Notes: generated by a model not told the origin, from the sequence alone. Counted from the first letter of the stretch, positions 1,683 to 64,000 are shown. The stretch: DNA of 64,000 nucleotides from an uncultured virus (IMG/VR IMGVR_UViG_3300014205_009008) (IMGVR_UViG_3300014205_009008), one strand, 5' to 3'. Program-made: numbers and translations.

Positions 1683-2015
1683 ATGAAAGTAAAAATTACA
1701 TTCGAGTTGGATCTGAAGGGAACACATTACAACATACCCAACAAGAGTGTTCTTAACCTATACCTCCAGAACCTAGGAAGTTGGATCCACGCACTGCATC
1801 TCAAGTACCTGGATAACAGAATAGAAGCTCAATTATACAAAGGAGATCCAGCCACCAAAAAAGCCCATATAATGCACGCGGAACAGGATGCAAAACTTTC
1901 TGCACAAATATTCAATAACTACACCGTGGAGGGCACCACCGAAAACGGGCAGCATTTCAAGTTTACACATCAGGAACCAGGTTACAAAGAGGAATTGAAG
2001 GTCACAAAGCCCTAA
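1683..2015 (+). CDS. Hypothetical protein
   Basis: ORF; ATG at 1683 directly follows the upstream stop. Confidence 0.5.
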   Translation: MKVKITFELDLKGTHYNIPNKSVLNLYLQNLGSWIHALHLKYLDNRIEAQLYKGDPATKKAHIMHAEQDAKLSAQIFNNYTVEGTTENGQHFKFTHQEPGYKEELKVTKP

Positions 2016-2582
2016 AATAAATCCATCTCCGTTTCAGCTGTAGGAGTTTCCAACACTAATTTAGCGCGCAATAGGCTCCTGTTATTGTCCCACCAGCCGT
2101 CGCCTATAATCTCTCTAGCCTTTGCGGTGTCCTTTAAATCAATGCCTAATAATTGATCCAAATTACCAAAGTTAGCCGCCAGCTCAAGCGGGGAGAGAGC
2201 ATGATTTCCATCAACACCAAAGCAATCCTCTAATAATAGCCACAGGAATCTGATCCAAGTTACCATGTTGGGCAGCATAGTGTAACGGCGTAAACTTTCT
2301 ATTGTCAGGTAATAACAATGTGCGTTCGTTTAAGACACTATTGGGTATTTGGGCTAAGGTACCATATGTTGCCGCCTCGTGGAGGGCAGTACGACCTACC
2401 ATATTTCCAACAATCAAATTTGCCTCAGTTAGCACTTCTTTTCGAATATTTCTGAAGCCGTTCTTAGCCGCGCTATGCAGCGGAGTATTACCAAAAGCAT
2501 CTGGCGTGGAATACATTCCTGTTACAAGCTCATCTACCTGCGCAAAGGACAGCCTCTTTAGTTCTTCTAACTCCGTCAGCAT
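2012..2582 (-). pseudogene. Ankyrin-repeat protein with WW/DLF tail, frameshifted near 2240
   Basis: ORF 2211-2582 has GNTPLHSAA-type repeats. The overlapping frame 2012-2278 continues with LDQLLGIDL...GDGWW...EMDLF. Confidence 0.8.
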
Positions 2583-2588
2583 CCCTAA

Positions 2589-2616
2589 AGGATAACAGAA
2601 GAATCACAGGAGTCAA
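2589..2616 (-). promoter_or_regulatory. sigma70-type promoter, leaderless spacing
   Basis: TTGACT-N16-TATCCT with extended -10 TG; 6 nt to the ATG at 2582. Confidence 0.55.
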
Positions 2617-3866
2617 AATAAATCAATCTCATGAGTCTCTTCTGTATCAAGCAACTCCCTACTGCGCTGAATGGACTTATACTTCGACCACCATTCTGGA
2701 GACACATACTGCTCACATTCATCACTCAAATCAATGGCAAGAAGACAATCTAGGTCCTCTTCAGCAACTGCCTCAAGTACCGTACCACTGCCTCCAATCT
2801 CTAAAATGTCATTAAGCTCAGTCTCAGATGGAGTTTGTGAGGAAATGAGCAAATTCTCGCAGGTCAAGAACTCCTCAGGTACCTGACTTAAGCAACCACT
2901 TAGTGCAGCCGTATGCAGGACAGTGTTTCCCAACGCATTGCGCTCAAACATAGCCTCACGAGTAATCAAGACCTTTGGAACATTATCCAGCATTTCACCC
3001 GAAGCAGCGCAGTGTAGCAGATTGCTTTTGAATGCTGGTGCAGGAGTTATAGGTACAGTATTGAGAATAGTGGAAGTAAACTCACGAAACCGATCATCAC
3101 GGTAGACATACATCAACTCCTTGACTACCTCAAAGGGCAGTTCAGACAAACACCCAGTTGTCGCAGCCACTTGGGCCACAGTCCTATTATGAATGTCGTA
3201 CGCTGCTAAATTTGCCTTAGTGAAAAACTTCTTTGGAACATTATTGAAAGTCCCAAATTCAGCAGCAATATGCAATGGGGAACAATCAAAACGCGCAACA
3301 TCGGTCATTGTCTTGTCCGTAAGGTGACACTCTGGTAGTTGATCCAAACATCCTCCCTCTGCAGCCACCTGTAGTAAATTCTTCGAGTCCTGCGTCGCAA
3401 AAACCATATCATCTGTTAGCAGCTCAACAGGGACCTGATATAATTTCCTGTTTAGTGCCGCACGATGTATAGCAGTCAAATCTAAATGTTTTACCAATGC
3501 ATCCTTCGGCACCTTATCTAGATGCCCATGGAGAGCAGCATAGTCCAATACAGATACTCCAGTACCGTCGCGGGCTGTGAGAGCCTTCTCTGTTAAGAAC
3601 TCCTTCGGACACTCGTCAATAAATCCGCGCATGGCGGCTATATGTAGAACAGTAAGCTTACGGTCGCGCAGGCTACGGGACATGTAGTTATGTTGAGGGA
3701 AAGCAGGATCCCAAATATATGGAATTTCCTTTATACGCTCCAACGGTAATAACTCCAAGATGCTCTTACTCTTCTCCAAAGGCGCAAAAAGATAAAAAGA
3801 TAACGCCACCTTATCTGGTGTCCCACCAGATAAGAAATGTTTTAGTTTATCCTCAAGTTGACCCAT
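2613..3866 (-). CDS. Ankyrin-repeat protein with WW/DLF tail
   Basis: Repeats such as TVLHIAAMRG and GNTVLHTAALSG; ends PEWW...HEIDLF. Confidence 0.85.
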   Translation of the reverse strand: MGQLEDKLKHFLSGGTPDKVALSFYLFAPLEKSKSILELLPLERIKEIPYIWDPAFPQHNYMSRSLRDRKLTVLHIAAMRGFIDECPKEFLTEKALTARDGTGVSVLDYAALHGHLDKVPKDALVKHLDLTAIHRAALNRKLYQVPVELLTDDMVFATQDSKNLLQVAAEGGCLDQLPECHLTDKTMTDVARFDCSPLHIAAEFGTFNNVPKKFFTKANLAAYDIHNRTVAQVAATTGCLSELPFEVVKELMYVYRDDRFREFTSTILNTVPITPAPAFKSNLLHCAASGEMLDNVPKVLITREAMFERNALGNTVLHTAALSGCLSQVPEEFLTCENLLISSQTPSETELNDILEIGGSGTVLEAVAEEDLDCLLAIDLSDECEQYVSPEWWSKYKSIQRSRELLDTEETHEIDLF

Positions 3867-3871
3867 TTAAT

Positions 3872-3901: not shown

Positions 3902-3918
3902 TCAAAACAAAAGAATAC

Positions 3919-8016: not shown

Positions 8017-8091
8017 GTCACCATAGTTCAACGGATAGAACGGGAGTTTCCTAAACTTTAAATCCGAGTTCGATTCTCGGTGGTGATACCA
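8017..8091 (+). tRNA. tRNA-Arg(CCT)
   Basis: Cloverleaf with acceptor GTCACCA/TGGTGAT, anticodon loop TT-CCT-AA, T loop TTCGATT and encoded CCA. Confidence 0.9.
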
Positions 8092-8935: not shown

Positions 8936-10168
8936 ATGACTCTATTTAACGAGCTACAGGCAAGGGGACTCATTCATAATTGCTCCGATGCTGAAAGCCT
9001 GGAGACAAGGTTAACAAGGTCTATTACGCTATACTCTGGGATTGATCCGACTGGTCCCGACTTGCATGTAGGGCACCTATTACCGCTGCTGATGCTCCAA
9101 AGGTTTCAACAGGCCGGGCACAAAGTCATCGTCGTCATAGGTGGTGCCACCGCTCGCATTGGTGACCCATCAGGCAAGAAGGGGGAGAGAGAGCTACTGC
9201 CAATTGAGACAATCAAGTCAAACATCTCCTCCTTGAGCGTTCAAATCAACAAACTCTTTGACTCCAACATCACAATTCTGGACAACGCTGAGTGGTTCGA
9301 AGGCATGAGTTGCCTTACATTCCTAAGAGACATAGGAAAACACTTCCCACTTGGAGGCATGTTATCAAAAGATAGCGTGGCTAGTCGAATTGCAACGGGA
9401 ATCAGCTTTACAGAGTTCTCATACCAGTTACTTCAGGGTCACGATTTCGCACATCTGAATTCAACGCTGGCGTGCGAGCTGCAAATCGGCGGAAGTGACC
9501 AATGGGGAAATATTGTTGCCGGTCTGGAACTTATCAGGCGTACGAATTCCAAAGAATGCTTTGGGCTTACCTTTCCACTGCTGACCAAGTCCGACGGCAG
9601 CAAGATGGGTAAAAGCGAAGATGGAGCGGTCTGGCTTAATGCATCAAAAACCAGCCCGTTTAAATTCTTTCAGTTCTGGCGCCAGGTAACAGACTTGGAA
9701 GTAGGGGAACTTCTGCTCAAACTCACCAGCATCCCGCCAGCTGAGATATCCAGCATTATGGAGCAGCACCGGCAAGCCCCACAGCTAGGAAAGGCCCAAG
9801 AAGTGTTGGCCGCAGCACTTACAGCCCAAGTACATGGTGATGCTGCCACAGAAAACGTCAAGATAGCAAACGCAATACTATTCAATGGCAGCCAGGACCT
9901 CACAGAACATGCACTTGAGGTATTGGCAACCGAAATACCAACATTCTGTTGTAGTAACTCCACAATCGAAGCAGTAGCGCAATGTTTCGCATGCAGTAAA
10001 AGTCAGGCACGAAGGGATATTCAGAGTAAAGGTATCAGCATCAACGGTAAGGTAATAGGGCTAGAAATGTCAGATTTGGACAGCCATTGGATATTCGACA
10101 AATTTATCTTACTGCGCAAGGGAAAAAGGCAATTTGCATTAGGTATCAGGCAAGATAAACTGCAATAG
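8936..10168 (+). CDS. tyrS: Tyrosyl-tRNA synthetase
   Basis: YSGIDPTGPDLHVGH, QIGGSDQWGNI, KMGKS and a C-terminal S4-like LLRKGK domain. Confidence 0.97.
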   Translation: MTLFNELQARGLIHNCSDAESLETRLTRSITLYSGIDPTGPDLHVGHLLPLLMLQRFQQAGHKVIVVIGGATARIGDPSGKKGERELLPIETIKSNISSLSVQINKLFDSNITILDNAEWFEGMSCLTFLRDIGKHFPLGGMLSKDSVASRIATGISFTEFSYQLLQGHDFAHLNSTLACELQIGGSDQWGNIVAGLELIRRTNSKECFGLTFPLLTKSDGSKMGKSEDGAVWLNASKTSPFKFFQFWRQVTDLEVGELLLKLTSIPPAEISSIMEQHRQAPQLGKAQEVLAAALTAQVHGDAATENVKIANAILFNGSQDLTEHALEVLATEIPTFCCSNSTIEAVAQCFACSKSQARRDIQSKGISINGKVIGLEMSDLDSHWIFDKFILLRKGKRQFALGIRQDKLQ

Positions 10169-11936: not shown

Positions 11937-12928
11937 ATGAAGATAAGAACTCTACTCACAATAGTAATCGGCATCCCATGTAGCGTGATGGCTGACCCAT
12001 ACCCCAACACGCAGTCGCCGGAGCAAGCATCCTACACGTCACCATATGTATATTCGCCAGCCATCACAGCACCAGCCATCACCACAGGATTTAACGATGA
12101 TCCACGAGTCTTTACCAACTGGCAGGACTGGTCGCTAACACCTTACTCCGATTGGCAAAACTTTAACGCCATACAACACCTCGACTCCACTTGGGGGGCA
12201 TACTTCAAACCTATAAACGGACCAGTAGATGTACAAAGTGCCACAACCGAATGGCTGCAGACCAGACTGGTTGCAGCAGCATCTCTCCTGCGCAATACAG
12301 TGCCATACGGGCATCACCACATCCAAGTTTGGGACGTACCAAATACCACTCAGTGGACAGATGCAGGTTACGAGGCAGGCTACGGAATTGACTGCTCAGA
12401 CTTCACACACTGGACTTACAATTACGGGCTAGCATCCAACTCAAAACCGGGGTAGCAGAACAAGCCGCCATGACATCGGCTGAAATATATCTTGATGATG
12501 GAAGCGTGGTTCTAGTTGAAGGGCAGCATCTATTCGACGTTCATAACGGATATGTCAAAGACTACAACTCACTCGTATCCAGTCTGCAGCCCGGCGATCT
12601 TCTATATATTCGCAGTGACCCAGCACTCTCAAATCCTATCTCCCACGTTATCATGTGGCTCGGTGGATTAGCTACAGATACAAACGGAATCGATGCATAC
12701 TTTGTCACAGACAGCCACGGAGATGTAGTGTATGATTCCAACGGAAACCTTATACCATCTGGACCAGAAATCCGACCATTCGGAAAAGACAGTTACTACT
12801 TTGGCTCATTCGACCACGTAGTGCGTTACGCACCATTGAATATTGTTCCAGAACCAACAACAATAGGGCTCTTTGTTTCGGGAGCGATCATGCTGGACAT
12901 AAAGCTCAAGAAACGCCGCAAAGAATGA
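11937..12928 (+). pseudogene. Secreted NlpC/P60 peptidase with PEP-CTERM anchor, split by a 1-nt frameshift near 12432
   Basis: Signal peptide and GIDCSDF in ORF1; LQPGDLLY, SHVIMWLG and VPEPTTIGLF...KKRRKE in ORF2. Adding one base restores YGLGIQLKTGVAEQAAM. Confidence 0.8.
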
Positions 12929-13557
12929 AACTAGGGACTACAATGTCTGAGGATCTGATCGCTGAGTGGACAACGCCAGGGCTAATAGGAGTTTCACGAC
13001 TGCACGAAGCATGTATGAACGGTAACCTAGAAAAGGTCCCAAAACTTCTAATTACTGACGAATATCTGAGTCAAACAGAAGCTAGAAGCAAAGAAACCTC
13101 GTTTCACTACTTGGCCATAAGCAAGGCATTAGATAAACTTCCTATCGGCGTACTAAACCACCAAAACCTTACCAAGCCAGATGCATTGGGCACTTCCGTA
13201 CTACACATAGCAGCCGAAAATGGGAGCATAGAACAGATACCAAAAAATCTCCTAACTAGAGAAATCTTATTAGAAGGTGATACACGCAGCGTACTTCACC
13301 TTGCAGCGAGGTACGGGCACCTCGACAAGTTACCAGACGTATTTCTGCCAGAAGATTATCTTATCGAGATAAATCAATGGACACCATTCCATTTGGCAAA
13401 ATGCTGGGGCCACATGCACCAACTCCTGGGAGTTGACCTGCCCAAATCCTGTGAAAAGAGTGTAGATAAGGAATGGTGGGAGAAAAATCAACGATTGCTT
13501 CATGTTCAGGAAGAACTTATAGTTAACACCACAACACCCGACCTCGACCTATTTTAA
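12925..13557 (+). CDS. Ankyrin-repeat protein with WW/DLF tail
   Basis: SVLHIAAENG and SVLHLAARYG; ends KEWW...DLDLF. Confidence 0.85.
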   Translation: MKLGTTMSEDLIAEWTTPGLIGVSRLHEACMNGNLEKVPKLLITDEYLSQTEARSKETSFHYLAISKALDKLPIGVLNHQNLTKPDALGTSVLHIAAENGSIEQIPKNLLTREILLEGDTRSVLHLAARYGHLDKLPDVFLPEDYLIEINQWTPFHLAKCWGHMHQLLGVDLPKSCEKSVDKEWWEKNQRLLHVQEELIVNTTTPDLDLF

Positions 13558-29914: not shown

Positions 29915-31375
29915 ATGAACGCTGCTAAACAAATAGAAGTCTTGAATAGCCTGCTGAAAAGTAAGAACCCCGACTACCAAGAGCTAGCCAAACTCAAGCT
30001 TGCCGAACTGGCAGAACCAGTTTCCAACGATGCCGATATAGCCAAACTACGCAAAGCAGCCAAATCAGGAAAACTACACAAGCTGCCAAAGGCGATATTC
30101 ACACAATTTAACATCCTTGGTATCAAAGTCGACGACACCATCATCCACACCGCTGCCAAATACGGGCACCTAGACCAGTTGCCAGAGGAGCTACTTACTG
30201 AGCGAAACCTACTAACCCCAAATAAAAAAGGATACACACCGTTGTACCTGTGCGCTGAAAATGGGCACCTCAACCAAATCCCCAGTTGGATGTTGACAGC
30301 CAAAAACCTAAGAGCAAACGAGGAAAAAGGTAGGTCAGCGATTAGCGCAGCTGCAAGGACCAAGCACATAGATCAAGTACCAAGCAAAGCATTCGAAGAA
30401 ATAGTCATACAACATGACATAAAATACACAAAAGTCAAAGGCAGCCCGCCACGTCTAGGCGAGGGGGCACACGTTCTACACGAGATGCAAACATACGATT
30501 GTCTGCATCAGGCGCCAAAAGCACTGTTGACCGAAAAGCGGCTACTCGCGCCAGACCCAATAATGGAATACACCATGGTACACTGGTTAGCAAACAGTGG
30601 GCACCTAGACATGGTACCCGCTAGCATCTTGGTACCTAAGAACCTCCTACTAAAGACAACCACCGGAAAGACTGTCCTCCACTGTTGCGCAATATCAGGA
30701 AATCTTGACGCCGTCCCAAAACAGTATATTACATTAGAAAACGTACTCGTAAAGAACAACGATGGAGATACAGTACTTCACGCCTTTGCAGAATACGGGC
30801 ATTTGGACAAGTTACCAGCAACCTTGTTAACCAAACAATCTGTGGCGATAAAAAACAAAGCGGGGTTGTCGACAATACACATGGCTGCCGGAGCTGGCCG
30901 CAAGCACTGCAGGGCGGGGCTCGCACAGATACCAAAAGCATTTATCACCCAAGAATCACTACTAGAATACGGAGCGAATGAGCATACAACCGTATTCCTA
31001 GCAGTCGCAAGCGGCGAGCTAACCAATATCCCAACAGAGTTACTCACTGCAGAAACCCTACTTGCGGAAACCCCAAACAGACAAAATATCCCCCTGCACA
31101 GGGCAGCAGAGCTTGGTTACTTGGACCAGATACCTAGGGGAGTATTGACATCAAGTAATCTACTCGTGCAGGATTGTCGTGGAAATAGTCCACTCTCTAA
31201 TGCCTTTAAACACGGGTACTCAGATCAACTCCTAGGACTAGAATTGGAAGACAATCAGCCAATCCGGGAAATAGTAGGGGACGACTGGTGGGCTAGGAAC
31301 AAAAAATTATTAGCAGATAGGGCATGTCTGACAACAACAACCTCAACTGATGGGAAAAGTATAGACTTATTCTAA
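29915..31375 (+). CDS. Ankyrin-repeat protein with WW/DLF tail
   Basis: About 10 repeats of GxTxLHxxAxxGHLDQxP; ends GDDWW...SIDLF. Confidence 0.9.
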   Translation: MNAAKQIEVLNSLLKSKNPDYQELAKLKLAELAEPVSNDADIAKLRKAAKSGKLHKLPKAIFTQFNILGIKVDDTIIHTAAKYGHLDQLPEELLTERNLLTPNKKGYTPLYLCAENGHLNQIPSWMLTAKNLRANEEKGRSAISAAARTKHIDQVPSKAFEEIVIQHDIKYTKVKGSPPRLGEGAHVLHEMQTYDCLHQAPKALLTEKRLLAPDPIMEYTMVHWLANSGHLDMVPASILVPKNLLLKTTTGKTVLHCCAISGNLDAVPKQYITLENVLVKNNDGDTVLHAFAEYGHLDKLPATLLTKQSVAIKNKAGLSTIHMAAGAGRKHCRAGLAQIPKAFITQESLLEYGANEHTTVFLAVASGELTNIPTELLTAETLLAETPNRQNIPLHRAAELGYLDQIPRGVLTSSNLLVQDCRGNSPLSNAFKHGYSDQLLGLELEDNQPIREIVGDDWWARNKKLLADRACLTTTTSTDGKSIDLF

Positions 31376-31377: not shown

Positions 31378-32778
31378 ATGTCACCTTTAAAACAACTACA
31401 GGTACTGGAAACCCTACTGAAAAGTAAGAACAAAAGCATCCAAGAGCTTGCCAGAATCAAACGGGCAGAACTGGTAGCACCTATTGCTCAAAAGGAAAAT
31501 ACACTCAAATTGCGCAAGGCAGCAAAGACTGGCACATTGCATAAGTTACCAAAAGGACTATTTACACTAGATAACCTGTTGGGACCCATAATTTCCGATA
31601 CAGTCTTACACACAGCCGCAAGGTATGGGTACCTTGACCAAATACCAGAAGAGTTCATTACGGAGCGCAATCTGTTAATCCACAACCGGGAAGGAAATAC
31701 CCCGCTGCATCTATGTGCAGAACACGGACATCTAGATCAGATACCAAAAGAGATTTTAACACCTACCAACCTGCTAATTAAAAACCCACAAAACGGACAA
31801 TGCCCATTTAAACTAGCGGCAAGCAACAAACATGTAGACCAATTACCGCCAGCCAGCGTGGAAGCCCTACTTTCAGTTGATGTTATGGAAGGTAGTAACG
31901 GTCTGCATGCAATCGTATTTGGCGGATGCTTGGATCAGATTTCCTCATCGTTGTTGACGGAGAAAAACGTCTTATCCAGATCAGAACCAGAAGGATGTAC
32001 CATCCTGCACTGGCTGGCCTGCGAAGGGGACCTACACCAAGTACCCAAAGAAATGCTCTCGCTAAAAAACTTGCTGCTACAAAACAGTCATGGAGATACC
32101 GCGCTCCATTACGTAGCCGAACATGGCAGTTTTTGGCCAATTCCAAAACAACTTATCACCATAGAAAATCTAATGGCAAGAAATAAAGCTGGTGACACAG
32201 TCTTCCACGCATTTGCCAGCCACGGCAAACTGCACAAGTTACCGCCACATTTATTAACCACAGAATCTCTCTTAGCAAAAAATGTCGCAGGTCTTACGCC
32301 TATATATGTAGCCGCCAAAGCCGGTATTATAACTCAAGTCCCAAAGAAGTTTATCACGCAAGATGTACTACTGGAACGCGATAAAGAAGGATTAAACACA
32401 ATATTCAATGTAGTTATAGCAGGACAACTACGGTACATCCCAAAAGAACTCCTTACTGTGGAAATTATGATCACCCCAGCTTTTGATAAGGGGGAGACAC
32501 CATTACACCGAGCGGCATACATGGGGCATCTTAAACAACTGCCGCCAGAATTATTGACTGCAACTAACTTGCTCGTTAAAGATAAAACAGGGGCCACTCC
32601 GATTGACTTTGCATTTGAAGGCGATCACGCTGACCAGCTACTTGATGTTGACTTTTCCGACAGCCAAGCTGTCCGTAAAATAGTTGGAGAAGAATGGTGG
32701 CAGAAGAATCAAAGGGCTGTTTTCGGCAAGAAAAACCTTACCGTTACAGCACAAACCATAGAAGTAGATATATTCTAA
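31378..32778 (+). CDS. Ankyrin-repeat protein with WW/DIF tail (tandem paralogue)
   Basis: Same N-terminal LLKSKN...KLRKAAK cap as the preceding gene; ends GEEWW...EVDIF. Confidence 0.9.
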   Translation: MSPLKQLQVLETLLKSKNKSIQELARIKRAELVAPIAQKENTLKLRKAAKTGTLHKLPKGLFTLDNLLGPIISDTVLHTAARYGYLDQIPEEFITERNLLIHNREGNTPLHLCAEHGHLDQIPKEILTPTNLLIKNPQNGQCPFKLAASNKHVDQLPPASVEALLSVDVMEGSNGLHAIVFGGCLDQISSSLLTEKNVLSRSEPEGCTILHWLACEGDLHQVPKEMLSLKNLLLQNSHGDTALHYVAEHGSFWPIPKQLITIENLMARNKAGDTVFHAFASHGKLHKLPPHLLTTESLLAKNVAGLTPIYVAAKAGIITQVPKKFITQDVLLERDKEGLNTIFNVVIAGQLRYIPKELLTVEIMITPAFDKGETPLHRAAYMGHLKQLPPELLTATNLLVKDKTGATPIDFAFEGDHADQLLDVDFSDSQAVRKIVGEEWWQKNQRAVFGKKNLTVTAQTIEVDIF

Positions 32779-33377
32779 TGCCAGCAACACTTTTCAACAT
32801 GCCCGATCAAGGTTACACTGCACACCACATAGCTGCATGGACTGGCACGCTACACCGGCTGCCAAAAAAGGAACTCACCTTAGAAAACCTTACAGCGAAA
32901 AGTAAAAGCGGCTATACACCTTTAAGGTTTGCAGCTGAAAATAAGTATTTAAACCAAATCCCAACGGAGATACTACTCGAAGAAAACCTTATACCGGGAA
33001 CAACAATTTTACATTGGGCGGCAAAATACGGGTATTTGAGTCAGCTGCCAAAAGAAATCTTCACTCGGAAAGCACTGCGTTCGGAGGACAGAAATGGGGA
33101 GACACCATTCCATATGGCGGCTTGGACAGGGCACCTAAAGCAATTCCCGCGAGAACTCTTAACTCCCGAGAACCTACTATACAAAGGAAGCGCTATCCCA
33201 GCACCACTTCAGTTAATCACCACACATATAGATGACTTGCTAGGCATAGATTTTTGCGGAAACCAAGAAGTCCGAGAAATGGTTGGCGAGGACTGGTGGC
33301 ACAAGAATATCCAAGTAATAAAAGCCATGGAAGAATTGTCCAAGCCATACCGTAAAGTGGAAATTGAACTATTCTAA
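32778..33377 (+). CDS. Ankyrin-repeat protein with WW/ELF tail
   Basis: GETPFHMAAWTG; ends GEDWW...EIELF. Confidence 0.85.
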   Translation: MPATLFNMPDQGYTAHHIAAWTGTLHRLPKKELTLENLTAKSKSGYTPLRFAAENKYLNQIPTEILLEENLIPGTTILHWAAKYGYLSQLPKEIFTRKALRSEDRNGETPFHMAAWTGHLKQFPRELLTPENLLYKGSAIPAPLQLITTHIDDLLGIDFCGNQEVREMVGEDWWHKNIQVIKAMEELSKPYRKVEIELF

Positions 33378-35562: not shown

Positions 35563-36744
35563 ATGACTTCGTGGCATGAACGCGCTAAAAATGGGCAGTT
35601 GCATACACTGCCACACAGCGACCTTGCAGTGCTGATAATTAAAGATGCTGAGGGTAAAACCCCAATGCATTTAGCTATTGAATCGGGGTATTTCGATAGC
35701 ATCCCATCAAACTTCATAACAGAGAGAACCATGGTGACTAGGAACGAATTTGGGGAAACGCCACTACACCTAGCAATTAACAAAGGTTTTGCTGGAAAAT
35801 TGACATCATTTATGACTCCCGAGTACCTACTGCTTCGGGACAAAGCCAATAGAACCGTGTTTCATGCTCTCGTAGAAGCTGGGACAGTCAATTACGCACC
35901 AAAGTCCTTTCTAACAGAAGATCATTATCTAATTAAGGACTCGAGAGAAAACACCCCTCTGCACATGGCAGCCTCTAGCGGCCACTTGGATCAGGTTCCA
36001 GCACAAATATTACGTGAGCACATCACAACTGCTAAAAACGATTATGGGCGCACTGCGCTTCAGATAGCAGCCATGGAAAATCACTTGGACCAAGTTCCAA
36101 TAGATATACTAACAGTTGAAAATCTAGCTACGGCTGACAAAGCTGGGTGGACGTCACTTCATAATGCGGCGGCACGGGGGTACCTGAATCATATACCACT
36201 TCCAGTGCTAAGCTCGAAAGCAATGCTAATGCCACTACCCAACGGCGATACGCCATTCCATCTCGCAGCACAAAATGATGAACTGGATAAATTCCCAGAG
36301 GAAATACTCACAGCAAAGAATCTACTCCATATCAGTGATGTCCCTGGAAATAAATTTAGGAATACGGCGTTTCATTGGGCAGCTGTAAGTGGACATCTAA
36401 ATCAAATTCCTGTAGATCTTCTGACCAAAGAAAACCTACTAATGCGAAATAAGCGAGGTGTATCACCGCTAATGTATGCAGCTCGAGAAGGAATACTTGC
36501 GCAAGTACCAAGTGAGCGGCTGGTGGCTGAAAGCCTTATGGAAAAGGATGACGATGGAATAACATCGCTGCAATACGCAGTATTACGGGGGGAGCTAGGT
36601 CTCCTTTTGGGAGTGGATTTTTCAGACTATCCAGAAGCGCGCAAGATAGTAGGAAACGAGTGGTGGGAACAAAATGAAACGGTCACTAAGCATAAGGAAG
36701 AACTGAATAGCACAGTCGAGGTCATTGACATTGATATATTTTAA
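35563..36744 (+). CDS. Ankyrin-repeat protein with WW/DIF tail
   Basis: GETPLHLA-type repeats; ends GNEWW...DIDIF. Confidence 0.9.
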   Translation: MTSWHERAKNGQLHTLPHSDLAVLIIKDAEGKTPMHLAIESGYFDSIPSNFITERTMVTRNEFGETPLHLAINKGFAGKLTSFMTPEYLLLRDKANRTVFHALVEAGTVNYAPKSFLTEDHYLIKDSRENTPLHMAASSGHLDQVPAQILREHITTAKNDYGRTALQIAAMENHLDQVPIDILTVENLATADKAGWTSLHNAAARGYLNHIPLPVLSSKAMLMPLPNGDTPFHLAAQNDELDKFPEEILTAKNLLHISDVPGNKFRNTAFHWAAVSGHLNQIPVDLLTKENLLMRNKRGVSPLMYAAREGILAQVPSERLVAESLMEKDDDGITSLQYAVLRGELGLLLGVDFSDYPEARKIVGNEWWEQNETVTKHKEELNSTVEVIDIDIF

Positions 36745-37739
36745 AAGATATCCATTTCAGCCATATCAGTAGCCTCTGACAATCCAGCTTTCTCAGCCTT
36801 AACCTGATCGCTTCTCACCTTCCAGTCAGGTCCTAACTTGTCCTCAAGATTCTCAGGTAGTTCCACGCCAAGCAAGGCGTCCTCACGTTTAAATCTCCGA
36901 AAAACTGTTATCACGTCACCGGCAGCCTCGACATTCCACATATCTTTCGTCATTCTAGGCAACAGCAAAGACAATCCAGTCATATTATGACCGGCACATA
37001 TAGTCATTAATGGCAAAATATCAGAATCCAAAATATACTCCTTTACAAGATGCAACTGGTTACACTTAGCAGCAAAATGCAGCGGAGTTACACCTTTGCT
37101 ATTTGAGACATGTAACATCTCACCATCAACAACTGGGAAAACCGCAGAATTATTGTTTGGGCCAGCTACCTCCTCTTGAAGGTCAAGAAGAAGACCAATC
37201 TGCCCCCATTTTGCAAACTGATGCAACACAGTCTCACTTTTCTCACTCTTTTGTGATCTAAGCAATAAGTTTTTCTTCGTAATGTAGGGGCGTATAGTTT
37301 CGAATATACTCGAGCTAAGCTCCTTAGCCTCATCATCGGTAAATCTACTCTGCGACAGGGTCTGCTTGTTAGAGCGTAGAAACCCAAAGTTTACAACAGC
37401 GGCGTGAAAAGGTGTATACCAATCATCCTTTCCAGGTGTCTTGGTCAACATTGCCTCTGTGATATACGGCTTGACTATTGGAAACCATTTGGAGTTAAAA
37501 GCATAGTTAAGCGGGAAGTTCCCGCTAGAATTTACTGAATGGACCAGACCATGTTTTAGCACCACAGCAGGTATCCCACCTCCTTTATACTTCCTCAGGC
37601 TGTGGGCCTTTAGTTGTCTTGGGCTCTTTTTGGAAGTATCCATCAACCCCAGAGTGGAATGCAAGAAGGATTCGCCCGTAACATCGTTAACCTTTGTCCA
37701 CGCCTCAAATACAATAGCCTCCTCTCTTGACATCACCAT
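36741..37739 (-). CDS. Divergent ankyrin-repeat protein with DIF tail
   Basis: GVTPLHFAA; ends LLGVEL...EMDIF. TTGACG-N17-TATACT lies 5 nt before the ATG at 37739. Confidence 0.8.
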   Translation of the reverse strand: MVMSREEAIVFEAWTKVNDVTGESFLHSTLGLMDTSKKSPRQLKAHSLRKYKGGGIPAVVLKHGLVHSVNSSGNFPLNYAFNSKWFPIVKPYITEAMLTKTPGKDDWYTPFHAAVVNFGFLRSNKQTLSQSRFTDDEAKELSSSIFETIRPYITKKNLLLRSQKSEKSETVLHQFAKWGQIGLLLDLQEEVAGPNNNSAVFPVVDGEMLHVSNSKGVTPLHFAAKCNQLHLVKEYILDSDILPLMTICAGHNMTGLSLLLPRMTKDMWNVEAAGDVITVFRRFKREDALLGVELPENLEDKLGPDWKVRSDQVKAEKAGLSEATDMAEMDIF

Positions 37740-37799
37740 ACTGCAGTATACCAAACCACTGATGACACGTCAACCAATCCACCAAAACATAAATTCAGC

Positions 37800-43835: not shown

Positions 43836-43898
43836 GCAAATCGTAAATTCACACAAAGACTCAAACAACTCAATACTCAACTCACACTATCAGAAATA

Positions 43899-55742: not shown

Positions 55743-57521
55743 ATGAATACCAATTGGAACCTGCAATTGCTCTATACTGGCATGGATGATCCGCAGATAA
55801 CAATGGACATCGTAGACTTTGAAAATCAATACATCCAGTTTAACAAGAATTACTCCGGATCAAACCTCGCAGACAAGGCCACCCTGCTAAAGGCCCTCCA
55901 AGATTACACCCGCCTGCTATTTTGCCGTGGGGAGAGGGCAATGATTTATTTCAACTATATCACCGAGCTCAACAGCTCCGATACAGCAGCGGAAGCAGCC
56001 CTCTCGCTCACAACGGAAAGGATCACCAAAGCAAGCAACGAGGTCATCTTCTTTGATCTAAACCTCGGTAAAATCCCCGCAGAAACCCAGCAGGCTTTCC
56101 TGCAGGATCCTGACTTCGCACAATACCGCTATTATTTGGATGGGGTATTCAAGACAGCAAAATACAACCTGTCAGAAGCCGAGGAAAAGATTATATCACT
56201 CAAGGACGGGCCTTCTTACAGCATGTGGGTCAGCGGTCAGGAAAAGCTCCTGAGCCACCAGACAATTAACTGGAAAGGCAATATCATCCCGCTCACTGAA
56301 GCACAGGAACTTGTTGAATCACTGCCCACAAAAGAACGCCGCAAGCTCCATAAACAGGTAATGGCAAAGCTCAAATCCGTCAGCGATTTTGCCGAGGCAG
56401 AGATCAACGCCGTCTACACCGATAAAAAGATTGATGACGAACTTCGAGGGTTTAAGACCTCCTATGATGCAACCCTCCTCGAGCACGAAACAACCGAAGA
56501 CACAGTCTTTGCACTAGTCCAGTCAACGGCTTCAAATATCGCCATTAGTCACAGGTTTTTCAAGCTAAAGGCCAAACTCCTAGGACTGGAATACCTCACA
56601 TATGCAGATAGAGCAGTCACCCTGAGCACAGAACAGAAAGAAGTCCCCTTCGAAGCTGGAGTCCAGATCGTCAGAAAGGCATTTGCTGCAATGGACAGCC
56701 AGTTCTCAGACATCTTTGATTCGTATCTAGCCAAGGGGCAAATCGACGTATATCCAAAAAGCGGGAAAAGTGGTGGGGCATATTGTTCCAGTAGCATCGG
56801 CAATCCAACATACGTCCTGTTGAACCACATGCCCGACATGCAGTCAACCGTCACCCTCGCACATGAAATGGGGCATGCGATCCACAGCGAGCTCTCAGAA
56901 TCACAGCCGCCGCTCTATCAAGCCTACACCACCGCCGTCGCTGAAGTAGCCAGCACATTTTTTGAACAGATTGTATTCTATAACATGCTCGAAACACTCA
57001 GCGTCAAAGAGCAAATAGTGGCCCTCCACGATCGTATCAATCAGGATATCCAGACCACCTACAGGCAGATTGCATTCTTCAACTTCGAACTCGAACTTCA
57101 CCGGACAATGAAGAAGAAGGGGGCGGTATCCAAGGAAGAAATTGCAACCATCCTCAATAAGCATGTTTCCGAGTACCTAGGGGACAAATTCAAAATGGCG
57201 GAAGACGATGGTTTCTTCTTCGTTGGGCTCAGCCACATGCGAGACTTCTTCTATGTCTACTCATACGCCTATGGCAGTCTGATCAGCAGGGCGATCTACA
57301 AGCAATACGCCGAGGACAAGAATGCCCTTGTCAAAATCAAACAATTTCTATCTGCCGGTTGTTCAAAGAGCCCAGAAGATATTTTCAAAGATATCGGAAT
57401 CGACATCTCCAAACCAGAATTTTGGGACAACGGCTTCCAAGCAATCGCGGAAGACATCGACAGGCTGGAAGCATTAATCGCAAACAGCAAGGCGCAGGTC
57501 AGCAAATTAGCCCAAAATTAA
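55743..57521 (+). CDS. pepF: Oligoendopeptidase F (M3B)
   Basis: WNLQLLY, GKSGGAYC, TLAHEMGHAIH, AEVASTFFE and FYVYSYAYG. Confidence 0.92.
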   Translation: MNTNWNLQLLYTGMDDPQITMDIVDFENQYIQFNKNYSGSNLADKATLLKALQDYTRLLFCRGERAMIYFNYITELNSSDTAAEAALSLTTERITKASNEVIFFDLNLGKIPAETQQAFLQDPDFAQYRYYLDGVFKTAKYNLSEAEEKIISLKDGPSYSMWVSGQEKLLSHQTINWKGNIIPLTEAQELVESLPTKERRKLHKQVMAKLKSVSDFAEAEINAVYTDKKIDDELRGFKTSYDATLLEHETTEDTVFALVQSTASNIAISHRFFKLKAKLLGLEYLTYADRAVTLSTEQKEVPFEAGVQIVRKAFAAMDSQFSDIFDSYLAKGQIDVYPKSGKSGGAYCSSSIGNPTYVLLNHMPDMQSTVTLAHEMGHAIHSELSESQPPLYQAYTTAVAEVASTFFEQIVFYNMLETLSVKEQIVALHDRINQDIQTTYRQIAFFNFELELHRTMKKKGAVSKEEIATILNKHVSEYLGDKFKMAEDDGFFFVGLSHMRDFFYVYSYAYGSLISRAIYKQYAEDKNALVKIKQFLSAGCSKSPEDIFKDIGIDISKPEFWDNGFQAIAEDIDRLEALIANSKAQVSKLAQN

Positions 57522-60824: not shown

Positions 60825-60827
60825 ATC

Positions 60828-61256
60828 ATGAAATTCATTCCTACAGACATCCCCGCAGATGAAGTAGACGAGATAATTGCCAAAAAGTGCGGGTGGACCG
60901 AGCACGAGATCGGAGACGGTGGTATTTATGGCTGGCTTCCACCCGATGGTAAGCATAAGAAAAGTTGGTGGGGCTCGTACTACTCAGCCAAAGAATTACC
61001 AAAATATAGCTCATGCTTAGACGCCATGCACGAAGCCGAAGCATTTCTTAAGGGTGATACAGATTATATCCTAGCCAGAGCATATAAACATATTGACAGC
61101 ACAACCTGGGATACATATTGCAAGACCTTAGCTAGGCTATGCTCACCGGAATCACCGGTGCATGCCACGGCAGCTCAAAAATCAAGAGCCTTTCTTATAG
61201 CAACCGACGAACTCGCACAACTGGAAGTAGAAGAGTACGCACTACTGGAAATCTAA
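60828..61256 (+). CDS. Hypothetical phage-type protein
   Basis: IAKKCGW...LPKYSSCLDAMHEAE...ATAAQK. Confidence 0.5.
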   Translation: MKFIPTDIPADEVDEIIAKKCGWTEHEIGDGGIYGWLPPDGKHKKSWWGSYYSAKELPKYSSCLDAMHEAEAFLKGDTDYILARAYKHIDSTTWDTYCKTLARLCSPESPVHATAAQKSRAFLIATDELAQLEVEEYALLEI

Positions 61257-61495
61257 ATATGTTACCAATAGCAACAATTATCGTCATTTCATCTTGGATG
61301 GCACCAGCCGCTGTCACCGTTCTAGCAGGGCTTCTGGTAGCAGTAGTAGCAGCCTTGGAATATAGATCATTCCGAAACAGCGCCAATTCCGGTTGGCTCG
61401 CAGGTGTGTTCACATTCTTCGCACTTATCACAGCCGTTATAAGTATATTAGTTGCCTGGGGAGTTTGGCTGGCAACTATATTCTTGGGACGTTAA

Positions 61496-62881
61496 TCAAA
61501 AGAGATCCATCTCGGGTCGTTCATCAACCTCAACAAGAGAGTTTATGCATCTTATATGTTCTAGATGTGCCTCCCACCAGGTTTTACCGCCGCGCAACGG
61601 CTTGTCTAAGTCCCTTTTATAACTATCCGGAACAAGCAGGCTTGTAGGTATACGGTGCAAATATCCATTGTCTGCAGCCAGCTGCATAACATTACGCCCC
61701 CACGATACATCTACTTCGGCAATATTTTCAACAGTTAACAAACTACCTAAAAACTCATCATACCCGTCATCCTTGGATTGTGCCCCTATAGCCCATGCCA
61801 AAACGGAATGCCCACCTTCAGCATTAGGCGGAGTATCAAGAAGGGATAGAACCTCAGGGGTTAATAACTCCCTTGGTATTTGGTTCAAACATCCAGCGGA
61901 TGCCGCCTCATGATAAACAGTATACCACTTGTTACTAAGGCGCATATTCTCATCGGTCAACAATTCCTTTGGTGCACGATCTAAGCACGAATGCTGAGCC
62001 AGTGTGTGTAAAACTGTAGAACCATGTTCATCTACCCGCCTGTAATCATCCAGTTTTAACAGCCCCTCGGGTAGTCTGTTTAAATAGCCCGTAGCAGCCA
62101 GCTCATGTAACATATTTGGAGCCCCAGACAGTATTTTCTCAAAATTACGGGCAACATAGCCATTTGGTAACTGGTCAAGTTCTCCAAACATCACCAAACT
62201 CTGAAAAGCTGTTGTTCCACGAATATTTCTCAATAGCAGATTAGGAAGGTTAATGCACTCTGGTGGTAATTCCTTAATCCAGCCCAGACCAATCATTTCA
62301 TGGAATACCGTAGCCCCAGCTGCGTCCGTCTTGCTAAAGTTTTCGTTAGTCAATATATGCAGTGGTAAGTTGTGAATATTACCATACATTGCTGCCTGCC
62401 TAAAGCAGGTAGGTTTTCCAGGAATTTCCTCATTAAGGTACCGCGATGTAATCAGATCACTAGGGGCATGATCCCAGCCAAACTTAGCAGCCTTACTTAA
62501 CACCTCGTAGCCCATATCAGTAAGTGTAGCATCTGGTTGCAAAAATAGCTCTGCAGGAAGTTGCCCAGCCTTCCCAAGTCTCACAGCATGATCCAAAACG
62601 GTCTGCAGCTCAGTATAGGGTTCGTTAAACAAAGCCCTTGTCATGGACTCCTTTGGCACCTGCGCTATTTTATCATTCGAAATCATCGCGGCCATAACCG
62701 TCACACCAAGAGCATCTCTCAAGCCCAAATTTTCCTCAGTCAGAGCCCAATCGGGAATTACAGCATCAGGGTAACGTGCATAATTATGTAAGGTTGTAGA
62801 GCCTGCAAAGTCACGCCGAACCCAATATTCAGGGTCCTCAGGCGTAGGTCCAAACAACAATTCCCTTAGTTTCTTAAGCAC
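61496..62881 (-). CDS. Ankyrin-repeat protein with WW/DLF tail
   Basis: GSTVLHTLA-type repeats; ends TWW...EMDLF. TTGCCT-N18-TATAAT lies 5 nt before the GTG. Confidence 0.85.
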   Translation of the reverse strand: MLKKLRELLFGPTPEDPEYWVRRDFAGSTTLHNYARYPDAVIPDWALTEENLGLRDALGVTVMAAMISNDKIAQVPKESMTRALFNEPYTELQTVLDHAVRLGKAGQLPAELFLQPDATLTDMGYEVLSKAAKFGWDHAPSDLITSRYLNEEIPGKPTCFRQAAMYGNIHNLPLHILTNENFSKTDAAGATVFHEMIGLGWIKELPPECINLPNLLLRNIRGTTAFQSLVMFGELDQLPNGYVARNFEKILSGAPNMLHELAATGYLNRLPEGLLKLDDYRRVDEHGSTVLHTLAQHSCLDRAPKELLTDENMRLSNKWYTVYHEAASAGCLNQIPRELLTPEVLSLLDTPPNAEGGHSVLAWAIGAQSKDDGYDEFLGSLLTVENIAEVDVSWGRNVMQLAADNGYLHRIPTSLLVPDSYKRDLDKPLRGGKTWWEAHLEHIRCINSLVEVDERPEMDLF

Positions 62882-63853
62882 ACTTAATTATAGCACCAGC
62901 ATAATGGAAAAGGCAACCAAACACACCAAACAGAATAACCGACATGAAAATTTATCGGACAGCATTTCAATGGAACGAGACATACGACACAACCGCCCAC
63001 TGGATAGATATCATTAAACAACTTGGATACATCGTCTATGATATAGCCCCAAACGGAGCCGCCTACTGCGAGTATGCCATCAGCAAAAGAGTAGTCAAGA
63101 AATACAAGGGAAAGGAAGTGTAGGCAAAAACATAAATAACGTGCCAGATATTTACCTCAACCTTGACCAGCAAGCGCACAAGATCGTCATACGCGACCTA
63201 TACGACCATATTCTGCACAAATCAGTAACATTGGAGGAAATAGTCATATCCAATGAGGACTGCACCGTAGTAATCAAGGGTCAACCAATCCTTCGCTGGG
63301 ACCGCCACCTGCATTACCCAACTGCAGAAAATCACCCGATAGCCGCGTACCTATTCTTGCGAGCTATCGAAGATATCATACTCTCTAAGAAAGAAATCAC
63401 CCATTAACAATTATGTACAAGAAACCAATATATTGCGTCGGACTAGCCCACAACTTTGGTCGCACAGGCGAGTTTTTAGGAGCATCAATGCGCTACGCAG
63501 GATTCGTACAGGTAAGGTGGGACGGGGAGAACAGGTCAGTACAGCTCCAAAGAAAAGATATCATCATGACCTCCACGCTTGAGCGACCAACTGCCTATGT
63601 GGACCGCGCTAAATGCATTCCAAGTACGCAGCGCAAACACAACTACCCAAAATCAAGGAAACCTGCCAGCTCATTTAGCCTCTTCTCAAAATCCAAGCTC
63701 CGATGCCAGAGCAAGTGTTCAGCGTCAGGAACGCCATGCCAGAAGCGCAAAGGTCATAAAGGAACACATTCTGGATGGATATACAAGTGGGGGAAAAAGC
63801 ACTCACGCGCATAAGCTGTTGACTAGCCGAACTAAATAGCGCTAGAATCACTC

Positions 63854-64000
63854 ATGCCAGCTACCGAAAGTTTCCTATACAAAGCGGCAAGATTAGGGGA
63901 GCTAAACAAACTCCCCACTGAGGCACTGCTAGCCAGTGATTTTCTGGCTACGGATAAAGAAGGATTCTCCACCATCCACATAGCTGCGATATATGGACAC
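63854..64000 (+). CDS. Ankyrin-repeat protein, truncated by the window end
   Basis: MPATESFLYKAARLGELNKLP...GFSTIHIAAIYGH; TTGACT-N18-TAGAAT lies 5 nt before the ATG. Confidence 0.8.
   Translation, partial: MPATESFLYKAARLGELNKLPTEALLASDFLATDKEGFSTIHIAAIYGH

Follow-up and report, generated by a model that had tools for sequence, protein, structure and literature searches.

The 64-kb stretch of uncultured-virus DNA analysed here (the window) raises the question of why a series of ankyrin-repeat proteins with variable repeats should all stop at nearly the same five residues, and what such a shared end might do. Nine ORFs in the 64-kb window, one of them split by a frameshift, end in [E/D/S]-Φ-[D/E]-Φ-F-stop, and a six-frame search of the 64 kb with the regular expression [ILMV][DE][ILMV]F-stop returns these nine family ORFs and zero others. 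The members are listed below, with the source of each assignment in brackets.

2012..2278, - strand: 3' piece of the frameshifted member, with the last half-repeat, WW module, linker and tip EMDLF (88 aa; tail HMM 7.9e-21)
2211..2582, - strand: 5' piece of the frameshifted member, three atypical ankyrin repeats (Ank_2 1.4e-12)
2613..3866, - strand: 417-aa member, 8 repeats, tip EIDLF (ORF scan, Pfam, tail HMM)
12925..13557, + strand: 210-aa member, 5 repeats, tip DLDLF (ORF scan, Pfam, tail HMM)
29915..31375, + strand: 486-aa member, 11 repeats, tip SIDLF (ORF scan, Pfam, tail HMM)
31378..32778, + strand: 466-aa member, 11 repeats, tip EVDIF (ORF scan, Pfam, tail HMM)
32778..33377, + strand: 199-aa member P0001, 4 repeats, tip EIELF; the protein chosen for modelling (ORF scan, Pfam, AF2)
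35563..36744, + strand: 393-aa member, 9 repeats, tip DIDIF (ORF scan, Pfam, tail HMM)
36741..37754, - strand: 337-aa divergent member, weak repeats, W-K replacing WW, tip EMDIF (ORF scan, Pfam, tail HMM)
61496..62881, - strand: 461-aa divergent member, 9 repeats (lineage HMM), without LLGxD, tip EMDLF (ORF scan, tail HMM)
63854..64000, + strand: 5' end of a tenth ankyrin gene of the same repeat type, its C-terminus beyond the window (six-frame scan)

The family within the window

All nine tails that an earlier, sequence-only reading of this DNA had reported were found at the genes it named, with the tips listed above. It had also described an LL motif upstream of the tip and a WW pair about 25 residues from the end; the first, as LL[G/A/D]x[D/E], is present in 8/9 members (it is absent from 61496), and the second likewise in 8/9 (36741 has W-K). 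The partial gene it had seen at 63854 lies on the + strand and has the same repeat type. Its "gene at 2012" has the expected tail but is not a whole gene, being only the 3' piece of a frameshifted one whose repeats lie on ORF 2211-2582; in this member (2012-2582, - strand), the frame switches at about 2240-2270. The members at 29915-31375 and 31378-32778 are tandem paralogues with a common ~75-aa non-ankyrin N-terminus, and that at 36741-37754 (-) is convergent with its neighbour at 35563-36744 (+). Inspection of the N-termini of the window members by eye revealed no signal peptide, so that synthesis in the host cytoplasm is probable.

The ankyrin repeats

The proteins carry 3-11 atypical repeats each, with the consensus GVTPLHLAAENGHLDQIPKELLTEENLLA, and belong to the ankyrin class of tandem ~33-residue helix-turn-helix repeats (Pfam Ank, Ank_2, Ank_3, Ank_4, Ank_5). 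The Pfam ankyrin gathering score is reached by 8/10 window ORF pieces; ORF 61496 has a single sub-threshold match (Ank_2, 23.8 bits against a cut-off of 27.3), and the 88-aa tail piece at 2012-2278 has no Pfam ankyrin match. With ankyrin signal in 9/10 ORF pieces, the 3-11 atypical repeats of the sequence-only reading are present, and its suggestion that a proline disrupts helix 2 agrees with the AF2 model, in which this helix is split into short turns in every repeat. When compared with ankyrin and DARPin structures, the P0001 model gives a Foldseek E of 1.7e-5, TM of 0.44-0.60 and rmsd of 4-7 Å, values that mark its geometry as atypical.

Among the repeat positions, the least information is found at the x of GxT and the xx of AAxxG, which are the classical ankyrin target-contact positions known from DARPin design. 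The proposed modular architecture, a variable ankyrin stack with a constant C-terminal element, is upheld, with variation greatest at just these positions. When used as a query, the repeat region of 35563-36744 retrieves, besides other members of the family, ankyrin proteins of a generic and mostly eukaryotic kind at 23-36% identity, which give no hint of the host.

A three-part tail

The tail consists of a confidently folded WW helical module, a variable acidic linker of 7-8 residues and a conserved tip. The module spans ~35 residues with the pattern LDQLLG-x-[DE]-[FL]...VG-x-E-WW-x-K-N...L, and the tip, [ED]-[IVLM]-[DE]-[LI]-F, lies exactly at the C-terminus. Between them, the linker is acidic or polar, rich in E, A, T, S and D, and has 7 residues in 116/178 tails and 8 in 40/178. 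Family-wide, the module carries 3.7 bits of information at G20, 3.6 at G32, 4.2 at W35, 3.6 at N39 and 3.3 at L49; the linker carries 0.6-1.3 bits, and the five tip positions carry 2.1, 2.6, 2.9, 3.0 and 4.1 bits. Only about ten tail positions are near-invariant, and the expectation, named beforehand, that the tail would be more conserved than the repeats did not hold overall: within the window, mean pairwise identity is 31% for tails versus 38% for repeats. Nor is the tail a mere pentapeptide, as AF2 models it mostly as a folded helical mini-domain.

Sequence and structure searches for a known domain in the tail were empty (Pfam, NCBIfam, PDB, BFVD), in line with the view that the tail is not an already characterised domain. 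Thirteen isolated tails gave nothing in Pfam even at E ≤ 10. In a fold search with the isolated tail model, the best Z was 3.2 among 48,161 chains, Foldseek returned 0 hits, and the best ESM Atlas scores with the P0001 tail were 0.82, below a meaningful level. As a separate observation, co-prediction of two P0001 copies, run without controls, gave a score of 0.00 and a mark of 0.42, a result that bears neither way on self-association.

Distribution of the family

The database search with a tail HMM that had been suggested for this locus reveals a family-wide feature. Run against 1.84 billion representatives, a 56-residue profile of the tail matches 154 protein clusters at E ≤ 1e-3. Among the 150 matches listed of these 154, the profile match extends to the last residue in 145, and the tip regular expression fits 131. 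In the same 150 listed matches, the last residue is F in 141, Y in 4, L in 2 and W in 1; position -2 is L in 86, I in 49, V in 6, M in 5 and P in 0; the third-last position is D/E in 133; and position -5 is E in 64, D in 46 and Q in 1. In the window and related loci, 83/84 tail ORFs have the end of the tail no more than one residue from the stop.

All 20 of the 20 clusters checked are metagenome-only, on contigs of up to 376 kb. The family is expanded: a 156-kb contig carries at least 24 distinct copies within 44 kb, and contigs of 48, 233 and 376 kb carry 11, 8 and 6, respectively. The repeat type of this lineage precedes the module in 123/125 proteins of at least 120 aa. One member is a RecD2-like SF1B helicase fused to ankyrin and tail; since the tail there still follows ankyrin-like repeats, it was the whole ankyrin-tail unit that was fused to the helicase.

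Other searches returned little. Protein homologue searches with P0001 and with a family alignment yielded the window's own proteins only. A locus scan with a peptide pattern from a narrower alignment gave one marginal match in species genomes (L001, E 7e-4, 25 residues) and zero matches in IMG/VR; both scans rest on one peptide pattern, by which divergent members are missed. Megablast of 42750-48233 against 50,697 phage records gave no match, and the window's M3 peptidase and transposase, used as probes for relatives or hosts, found nothing. In the open full-text literature, no description of such a phage ankyrin family was found, and those passages of PMC12660748 that deal with ankyrins concern giant-virus repeats. 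This is a large, previously undescribed multigene family, found here only on metagenomic huge-phage-like contigs.

Genomic context

Huge (jumbo) phages are defined by a genome above 200 kb that includes virion genes. The contig to which the window belongs has at least 115,752 bp; those of relatives measure 233 and 376 kb. PHROG matches were obtained for 23/78 window ORFs at E ≤ 1e-5, with no capsid, portal or terminase among them, and the relatives carry the phage-typical phrog_22485, phrog_562, phrog_33734 and phrog_94. Because no virion gene was seen in the window or the related loci, the label "phage" rests on PHROG content and genome style. No receptor candidate (PDZ, TPR, clamp, SSB, Clp ATPase) was found among the window ORFs scanned. 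The DNA run that contains most of the window has the label landfill metagenome and is possibly its source. A small share of the window sequence also occurs in one wastewater run. No RNA sequencing runs are listed as containing it.

Tip and module occur apart

One alternative is that the whole tail does no more than finish the atypical ankyrin stack. In such a model, the tip would fold back as a structural cap, its Phe completing a hydrophobic core around the two Trp; there would be no shared partner, and the proteins would be one-to-one binders or inhibitors. AF2 predicts a confident, self-contained tail, and the last ten residues have a fair block mean pLDDT both in whole P0001 (85) and in the isolated 60-residue tail (77), so that the tip, as modelled, may pack on its own module and be structural. 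Furthermore, linker length is tight (7-8 residues in 156/178 tails), a narrow range that is also compatible with a fixed intramolecular reach, the module follows the lineage's own repeat type in nearly every longer protein (123/125), and overall tail identity is not above repeat identity.

However, the tip also ends ORFs that lack the module. In its 4-residue form it is found on 9 ORFs outside the tail HMM versus 0.75 expected, the chance expectation being drawn from the ends of 1982 non-family six-frame ORFs of the window and related loci; the 5-residue form is found on 6 such ORFs versus 0.057 expected. Five of the nine extra carriers have no ankyrin signal (Pfam at E ≤ 0.1, lineage repeat HMM). 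One of these "non-ankyrin" carriers, L017:7431-9659, obtains ESM Atlas scores of 0.91 with all structure rows ankyrin and TM below 0.5, and so looks like a degenerate ankyrin solenoid; true portability of the tip therefore rests on three or four small proteins. Conversely, P0004 and P0047 have a second module that is internal and lacks a tip. Module and tip are separable.

A cap, moreover, has no need for exact C-terminal placement behind an acidic linker of variable sequence. Tip-module covariation is absent as well (MIp ≤ 0.08 versus ≥ 0.13 for the top 20 pairs, none standing out), a null that is weak evidence because the tip hardly varies. Given the module-less tips and tip-less modules, we consider the cap unlikely, and yet the strongest of the alternatives. 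For the terminal pentapeptide as a docking element, which the sequence-only reading had put forward, the outcome is mixed: as would be expected of a docking or sorting tag, the tip is found on proteins without the rest of the tail, but no partner (clamp, protease or virion part) emerged from the analysis.

A proposed role for the tail

The best reading, to which we would give a probability of about 0.45, is that each of these proteins combines a variable ankyrin binder with a C-terminal docking or sorting tag that is common to all. In this model, the ankyrin face of each paralogue would hold a different protein, hypothetically one of the host or of its defences. The constant tail, chiefly the tip with its free carboxylate, would plug into one shared receptor; before that happens, the helical module may keep the tip in cis. 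Because the tails would dock on one shared receptor, all tip carriers would be brought to one site; that is, all members and a few unrelated tip carriers of the same phages would reach the same place or machine.

As to the class of receptor, we tentatively rank first a sorting or loading function (virion packaging for co-injection, or other localisation or export). A protease or AAA+ machine, with the tip as degron or adaptor, comes second and appears unlikely, and a replication hub comes third and is improbable. One specific and rather doubtful form of the first would make the tip an address tag of the huge-phage lineage, such that dozens of ankyrin binders and a few other proteins would be loaded onto a phage-encoded virion receptor and a library of host-protein binders would be co-injected with the DNA.

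The tip could instead act by itself in proteolysis, either giving early effectors a timed short life through a degron or protease-unfoldase docking, or delivering the ankyrin-bound target to a Clp/Lon-type machine; the delivery variant would be a bacterial analogue of poxvirus ANK/PRANC-SCF. A binding domain, a flexible linker and a short C-terminal peptide make up the layout of known protease adaptors such as SspB, which the family would resemble, and its diverse carriers have the tag in common. In addition, one related contig has a full ClpP (PF00574, 9.7e-83) and DnaK within 10 kb of its tail-gene array. However, this neighbourhood is seen on one contig only, neither a Clp ATPase nor Lon turned up in the window and related loci, and we know of no described bacterial degron that resembles the tip. 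This explanation seems to us less probable than a cap.

Recruitment to replication is very improbable. Here a host or phage sliding clamp, or an SSB-tail pocket, would recruit both the ankyrin binders and the helicase fusion to phage DNA during its replication; the acidic linker and terminal hydrophobic-Phe end may recall the QL[SD]LF, DDDIPF and T7 gp2.5/gp4 tails, and one carrier is the RecD2-like SF1B helicase. But among the 150 matches listed, Q occurs at -5 in 1 and Pro at -2 in 0, the helicase tail still stands behind ankyrin-like repeats as part of a whole fused unit, and it is not evident why a replisome should need 24 ankyrin paralogues. Least probable of all is a signal-peptide-independent export signal (type I-like or for another host system, e.g. 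into a protist or animal cell): it would suit the absence of an N-terminal signal peptide by eye, the signal-like last ~50 residues (an amphipathic helix and an acidic/hydrophobic end, as in type I substrates, whose C-terminal signal has no sequence consensus and is read by a cognate ABC transporter) and the ankyrin effectors typical of bacteria living with eukaryotes, but the run with most of the window is labelled as landfill and may be its source, no secretion or transporter genes were seen in the window and related loci, and such signals are usually far less conserved and modelled as disordered, unlike the WW module.

In poxviruses and giant viruses, the genes for host range and immune evasion characteristically form large paralogue families that diverge quickly; such families are, to our knowledge, rare in phages. 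In the phage-like lineage described here, copy number per genome reaches at least 24, each copy joining a variable binder to a constant, undescribed module and tip. Should the tip serve as a docking or sorting tag, it would define a new short linear motif, and with it a new receptor, in phage biology; the tip peptide would be a simple handle for fishing out that receptor, and the family would amount to a ready-made natural collection of ankyrin binders directed at bacterial proteins, perhaps those of defence systems. Even as a cap alone, the tail would still be a new domain family within an unusually large phage multigene family.

Comparison with known systems

The nearest parallels in design are the poxvirus ANK/PRANC (ankyrin plus F-box-like) host-range proteins and the ankyrin/F-box families of giant viruses, which are likewise viral multigene families with a variable ankyrin stack, a constant C-terminal element of ~50 residues and many diverged paralogues per genome. 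The window family differs from ANK/PRANC in its WW helical module and exactly C-terminal tip, and in its phage-like carrier of bacteria, which have no SCF ligase. The parallel does not extend to membership: no PRANC or F-box model matches the 10 window ORFs (E ≤ 0.01), 59 members (E ≤ 0.001) or 13 isolated tails (E ≤ 10), and the whole proteins match only ankyrin models.

Ankyrin-repeat proteins of bacterial viruses are also known from Wolbachia phage WO and from the sponge-symbiont "Ankyphage", whose ANKp has a signal peptide. A tblastn search with the 466-aa member at 31378-32778 found only 4 Wolbachia WO records, which are alike over the repeats only (query residues 70-417, 27.5-28.5% identity), with the tail outside the match. 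Compared with ANKp, the window family has no signal peptide by eye and is far larger, with its own C-terminal module.

At the tip itself, the likeness is to replication docking tips (the clamp motif QL[SD]LF, DDDIPF of E. coli SSB and the acidic tails of T7 gp2.5 and gp4 that end in Phe), in which an acidic flexible segment is likewise followed by a short hydrophobic motif with a final Phe and free carboxylate; the window tip has another residue order and a folded module before it. Docking of the QL[SD]LF clamp type, one of the earlier suggestions, was rejected, its defining Gln being at -5 in only 1 of the 150 matches listed, and the SSB tip was rejected with Pro at -2 in 0 of those 150. The class III PDZ ligand consensus is X-[DE]-X-hydrophobic-COOH, and PDZ recognition typically needs a true C-terminus. 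As a pattern only, the tip fits this consensus (among the 150 matches listed, D/E is third-last in 133 and F/Y/L/W last in 148); the window ORFs scanned include no PDZ protein.

Finally, encapsulin C-terminal targeting peptides and the C-terminal helix-loop-helix of P22 scaffolding protein are tags that dock on an HK97-type shell or assembly protein, and there too diverse cargo has a common short C-terminal tag behind a flexible linker. We know of no sequence likeness between the tip and these tags, and the isolated tail model differs in having no fold match (best Z 3.2, Foldseek 0). If the tip does serve in virion loading, it would be a phage counterpart of the encapsulin cargo peptides, combined with the logic of poxvirus ANK/PRANC proteins.

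C-terminal tail of the ankyrin proteins

Translation of the nine ORFs with visible C-termini yields the endings EMDLF, EIDLF, DLDLF, SIDLF, EVDIF, EIELF, DIDIF, EMDIF, and EMDLF, all as listed in the sequence-only reading, and in a six-frame scan of the 64 kb, these family ORFs are the sole matches to [ILMV][DE][ILMV]F-stop. The earlier counts of an LLxD/E-type motif (LL[G/A/D]x[D/E]) and of WW, the latter about 25 residues from the C-terminus, have been reproduced at eight of nine tails each, and a lineage-specific repeat HMM returns the same 3-11 atypical ankyrin repeats per protein, with the consensus GVTPLHLAAENGHLDQIPKELLTEENLLA. A tenth gene, starting at 63854 (+), has the same repeat type and exits the window, as had been proposed. 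The gene placed at 2012 does correspond to a tail-bearing ORF, but a frameshift divides the gene, of which this ORF is the 3' portion rather than the whole:

2211-2582 (-), repeat ORF of the frameshifted member, three repeats
2012-2278 (-), tail ORF of the frameshifted member

The frame changes at about 2240-2270, where the repeat consensus resumes in the other frame; this member represents either a pseudogene or an assembly error. The change is of a single base, the ORFs overlap at 2211-2278 (-), and there is no obvious homopolymer run at the site. Pfam searches of the ten window ORF pieces reveal ankyrin models exclusively; eight pieces reach a gathering score, ORF 61496 matches an ankyrin model once, below the threshold, and the 88-aa tail piece (2012-2278) has no match.

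The information profile of 178 distinct tails resolves three parts.

Parts of the tail and their information content
Conserved core: L19, G20, G32, W35, W36, N39, L49 (2.9-4.2 bits)
Linker: about seven positions (0.6-1.3 bits)
Tip: E/D, I/V, D/E, L/I, F (2.1, 2.6, 2.9, 3.0, and 4.1 bits)

The linker, in which E, A, T, S, and D are abundant, ranges from 4 to 11 residues; of the 178 tails, 116 have a 7-residue linker and 40 an 8-residue one. An AlphaFold2 model of P0001, the 199-aa member at 32778..33377 (+), has a mean pLDDT of 93.4 (73-row alignment) and contains four repeats, the second helix of each broken into short turns, followed by a tail that begins with two short helices, continues with helices of 7 and 18 residues, and finishes in an extended stretch; over the final ten residues, the block mean pLDDT is 85. 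The 60-residue tail, modelled alone, also folds (71-row alignment; mean pLDDT 82.6, last ten residues 77), and since it does, the bulk of the tail is predicted to be a small autonomous helical domain.

The confidence of the model at the tip, together with the tight linker length, suggests that the tip may lie back on the helical domain. The tail would then be a structural cap with the tip packed in cis, an explanation that we consider unlikely, if the best of the alternatives.

The tail does not correspond to a characterised domain in the collections searched. No match was obtained in Pfam (13 tails, E<=10), NCBIfam, Foldseek against the PDB (0 matches), VIA-align against 48,161 chains (best Z 3.2), or BFVD (E 9.2), and among PDB sequences, matching is confined to the ankyrin helix (profile positions 1-16). 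The family possesses a new C-terminal helical domain; after it come an acidic, variable linker and, at the true C-terminus, a conserved tip.

The expectation that the tail would be more conserved than the repeats does not hold overall: mean pairwise identity is 31% for the nine window tails versus 38% for 43 well-formed repeats, a result that, by the test proposed with the claim, counts against it. We think, however, that overall identity is too blunt a measure; the fold itself conserves the repeat scaffold. About 10 tail positions are near-invariant family-wide. The low-information repeat positions (0.7-1.0 bits) are the x in GxT and both x in AAxxG, which we take, from DARPin design, to be the classical target-contact positions of ankyrins.

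Distribution of the family

When a profile built from the C-terminal 56 residues of all nine paralogues was searched against 1.84 billion representative proteins, 154 matched at E<=1e-3, 18 of them also at E<=1e-10. Among the 150 matches listed, 145 have the module running up to the very C-terminus, the final residue is Phe in 141, and 131 agree with the tip pattern; the lineage ankyrin repeat is found in 123 of the 125 among them that have >=120 aa. Pfam detects ankyrin models almost exclusively in 59 longer matches; the exception, P0118, is a RecD2-like helicase in which one or two degenerate ankyrin-like repeats still precede the tail. None of the 20 protein clusters looked up has a name; their sequences originate from assemblies of JGI, ENA, or Logan, in which the contigs concerned reach 375,977 bp. 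A scan with a single peptide pattern produced one marginal match in prokaryote genomes (185,579 species, one genome each) and none in IMG/VR, and metagenome contigs, 1.2-376 kb long, yielded 17 loci in a pattern-based scan.

A tail HMM built from 142 tails identifies 84 tail ORFs in the window and these loci (78 distinct genes after merging overlapping loci). Of the 84 ORFs, 83 have a tail that finishes no more than one residue from the stop. In the remaining ORF, L011:2897-4261 (-), the tail is internal (residues 278-333 of 455, with about 120 residues after it), which may reflect read-through or a gene fusion. At least 24 distinct tail genes lie within the 44 kb covered of a 156-kb contig, and the covered parts of 48-kb, 233-kb, and 376-kb contigs hold at least 11, 8, and 6, respectively. 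The family is a metagenome-only, phage-associated, and strongly expanded group of ankyrin proteins, and inspection of the N-termini by eye reveals no signal peptide.

Gene context

The contig carrying the window is at least 115,752 bp. Most of the window is contained in one sequencing run labelled landfill metagenome, possibly the very sample from which it derives. The window genes are tightly packed, largely on one strand, with 42-49% G+C, and include three tRNA genes as well as HNH, RNase H, Nudix, macro, NT5C, and YqeY-like proteins. Features of the window and of the 48-kb relative (L004) are as follows:

8017-8091, tRNA Arg-CCT
8936-10168, tyrosyl-tRNA synthetase, full (PF00579, 3.5e-77)
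12470-12928 (+), protein ending in a PEP-CTERM sorting signal
16806-17645, GmrSD_N-domain protein
22582-23352, R2K-clade ATP-grasp enzyme
27111-27590, YkuD L,D-transpeptidase
33839-33914, tRNA Met-CAT
35343-35425, tRNA Leu-TAA
38231-38668 (+), small ORF without known family
43899-48233 (+), RHS/YD-repeat protein, 1444 aa
48253-48681, small ORF downstream of the RHS gene (phrog_32682)
52705-53190, macro-domain protein
55743-57521, M3 oligopeptidase (M3 peptidase)
60828-61256 (+), small ORF without known family
L004:10253-12178, DnaK/Hsp70, full-length (PF00012, 9.9e-257; phrog_22485)
L004:12317-13294, protein ending in a PEP-CTERM sorting signal
L004:19386-19967, ClpP, full (PF00574, 9.7e-83)

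The R2K ATP-grasp, GmrSD_N, M3, YkuD, and macro proteins form an auxiliary enzyme set that is odd for a phage-like element. PHROG matches at E<=1e-5 were obtained for 23 of 78 window ORFs, none of them to capsid, portal, or terminase, and 50,697 deposited phage genomes contain no near relative of the window; the element is huge-phage-like, with virion genes absent from the DNA examined.

The RHS protein and the two small ORFs without known family are common to the window and family-bearing contigs. An RHS homologue on the 156-kb relative (L003:12705-16982; 60% identity over 1118 residues) adjoins the ankyrin array, and the small ORFs, which are far better conserved than the surrounding ankyrin genes, are 77% and 60% identical to L015:3518-3979 (376-kb relative) and L018:890-1270, beside tail genes. 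The RHS protein, with an Rhs-associated core at residues 1155-1236 and then a C-terminal domain of about 208 residues that matches no known family, is laid out like a polymorphic toxin, for which the phrog_32682 ORF could be a candidate immunity gene. Relatives' contigs also encode DnaK, ClpP, PheRS, RtcB, an Rnl1-like ligase, a Ser/Thr kinase, and a PEP-CTERM protein; on the 48-kb contig, DnaK and ClpP lie <10 kb from an array of at least eight tail-bearing ankyrin genes. One relative has a PheRS-like gene, RtcB, and a protein with a ribosomal L7/L12 C-terminal domain.

The phage-encoded PEP-CTERM proteins (TIGR02595, 19.1 bits against a cut-off of 16; PF07589, 9.3e-07) suggest a Gram-negative host that possesses an exosortase system. 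The ORF at 11937-12455, which adjoins the window PEP-CTERM gene, has an N-terminus resembling a signal peptide by eye.

Separability of the tip and possible function

Two of the matched proteins, P0004 and P0047, have an internal second helical module without a tip (residues 74-119 and 205-267 for the two modules of P0004). Two WW-module copies are present in P0004, P0047, and L014:2-622, the internal copy being without linker and tip.

Among 2072 six-frame ORFs of >=50 aa from the window and loci, the 4-residue tip ends 88, of which 79 match the tail HMM and nine do not. At the ends of the 1982 non-family ORFs, these nine compare with 0.75 expected empirically, and the 5-residue tip occurs six times versus 0.057 expected.

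ORFs ending in the tip outside the tail HMM
Lineage repeats and a diverged module: 3
Frameshift remnant: 1
No ankyrin signal (repeat HMM; Pfam E<=0.1): 5

The last five are L005:3529-4116, L007:4924-6240, L007:10164-10559, L009:16678-17094, and L017:7431-9659. The L017 protein (743 aa), the one of the five examined further, resembles a degenerate ankyrin solenoid by ESM Atlas comparison, with feature scores up to 0.91 and structure matches that are all ankyrin, at TM <0.5; consequently, the safe statement is that the tip outlasts both the repeat signature and the module. It is probably also present on a few small unrelated proteins.

These results have led to a tentative model, to which we assign a probability of roughly 0.45, in which the ankyrin faces would hold different targets while the tip, through its free carboxylate, would dock on one shared receptor. 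The spread of the tip, like that of a tag, across carriers of different kinds agrees better with a sorting or loading signal, or with a degron, than with a replisome hub. That the tip is itself a degron or protease adaptor, which this spread favors, is somewhat less probable than the structural cap, and docking on a replication hub, which the spread fits less well, is improbable. An export signal in the tail is the least probable explanation.

Comparison with known systems

The tip resembles both the SSB tip and the clamp-binding motif without having the residues that define them: among the 150 matches listed, Q occurs at position -5 in one and P at -2 in none, and both motif assignments, including the sliding-clamp motif suggested by the sequence-only reading, have been rejected. 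The tip formally fits the class III PDZ ligand pattern, and no PDZ protein was found among the window ORFs scanned. The cargo peptides of encapsulins and, in the P22 scaffold, the C-terminal domain that binds coat protein have a parallel design; Foldseek against the PDB and VIA-align reveal no link to them in sequence or fold. Finally, membership in the poxvirus ANK/PRANC proteins, with which the family had been compared, is excluded, since Pfam gives no PRANC or F-box signal in the ten window ORF pieces, the 59 longer matches, or the 13 tails; what stands is the shared architecture of a variable ankyrin stack joined to a constant C-terminal element.
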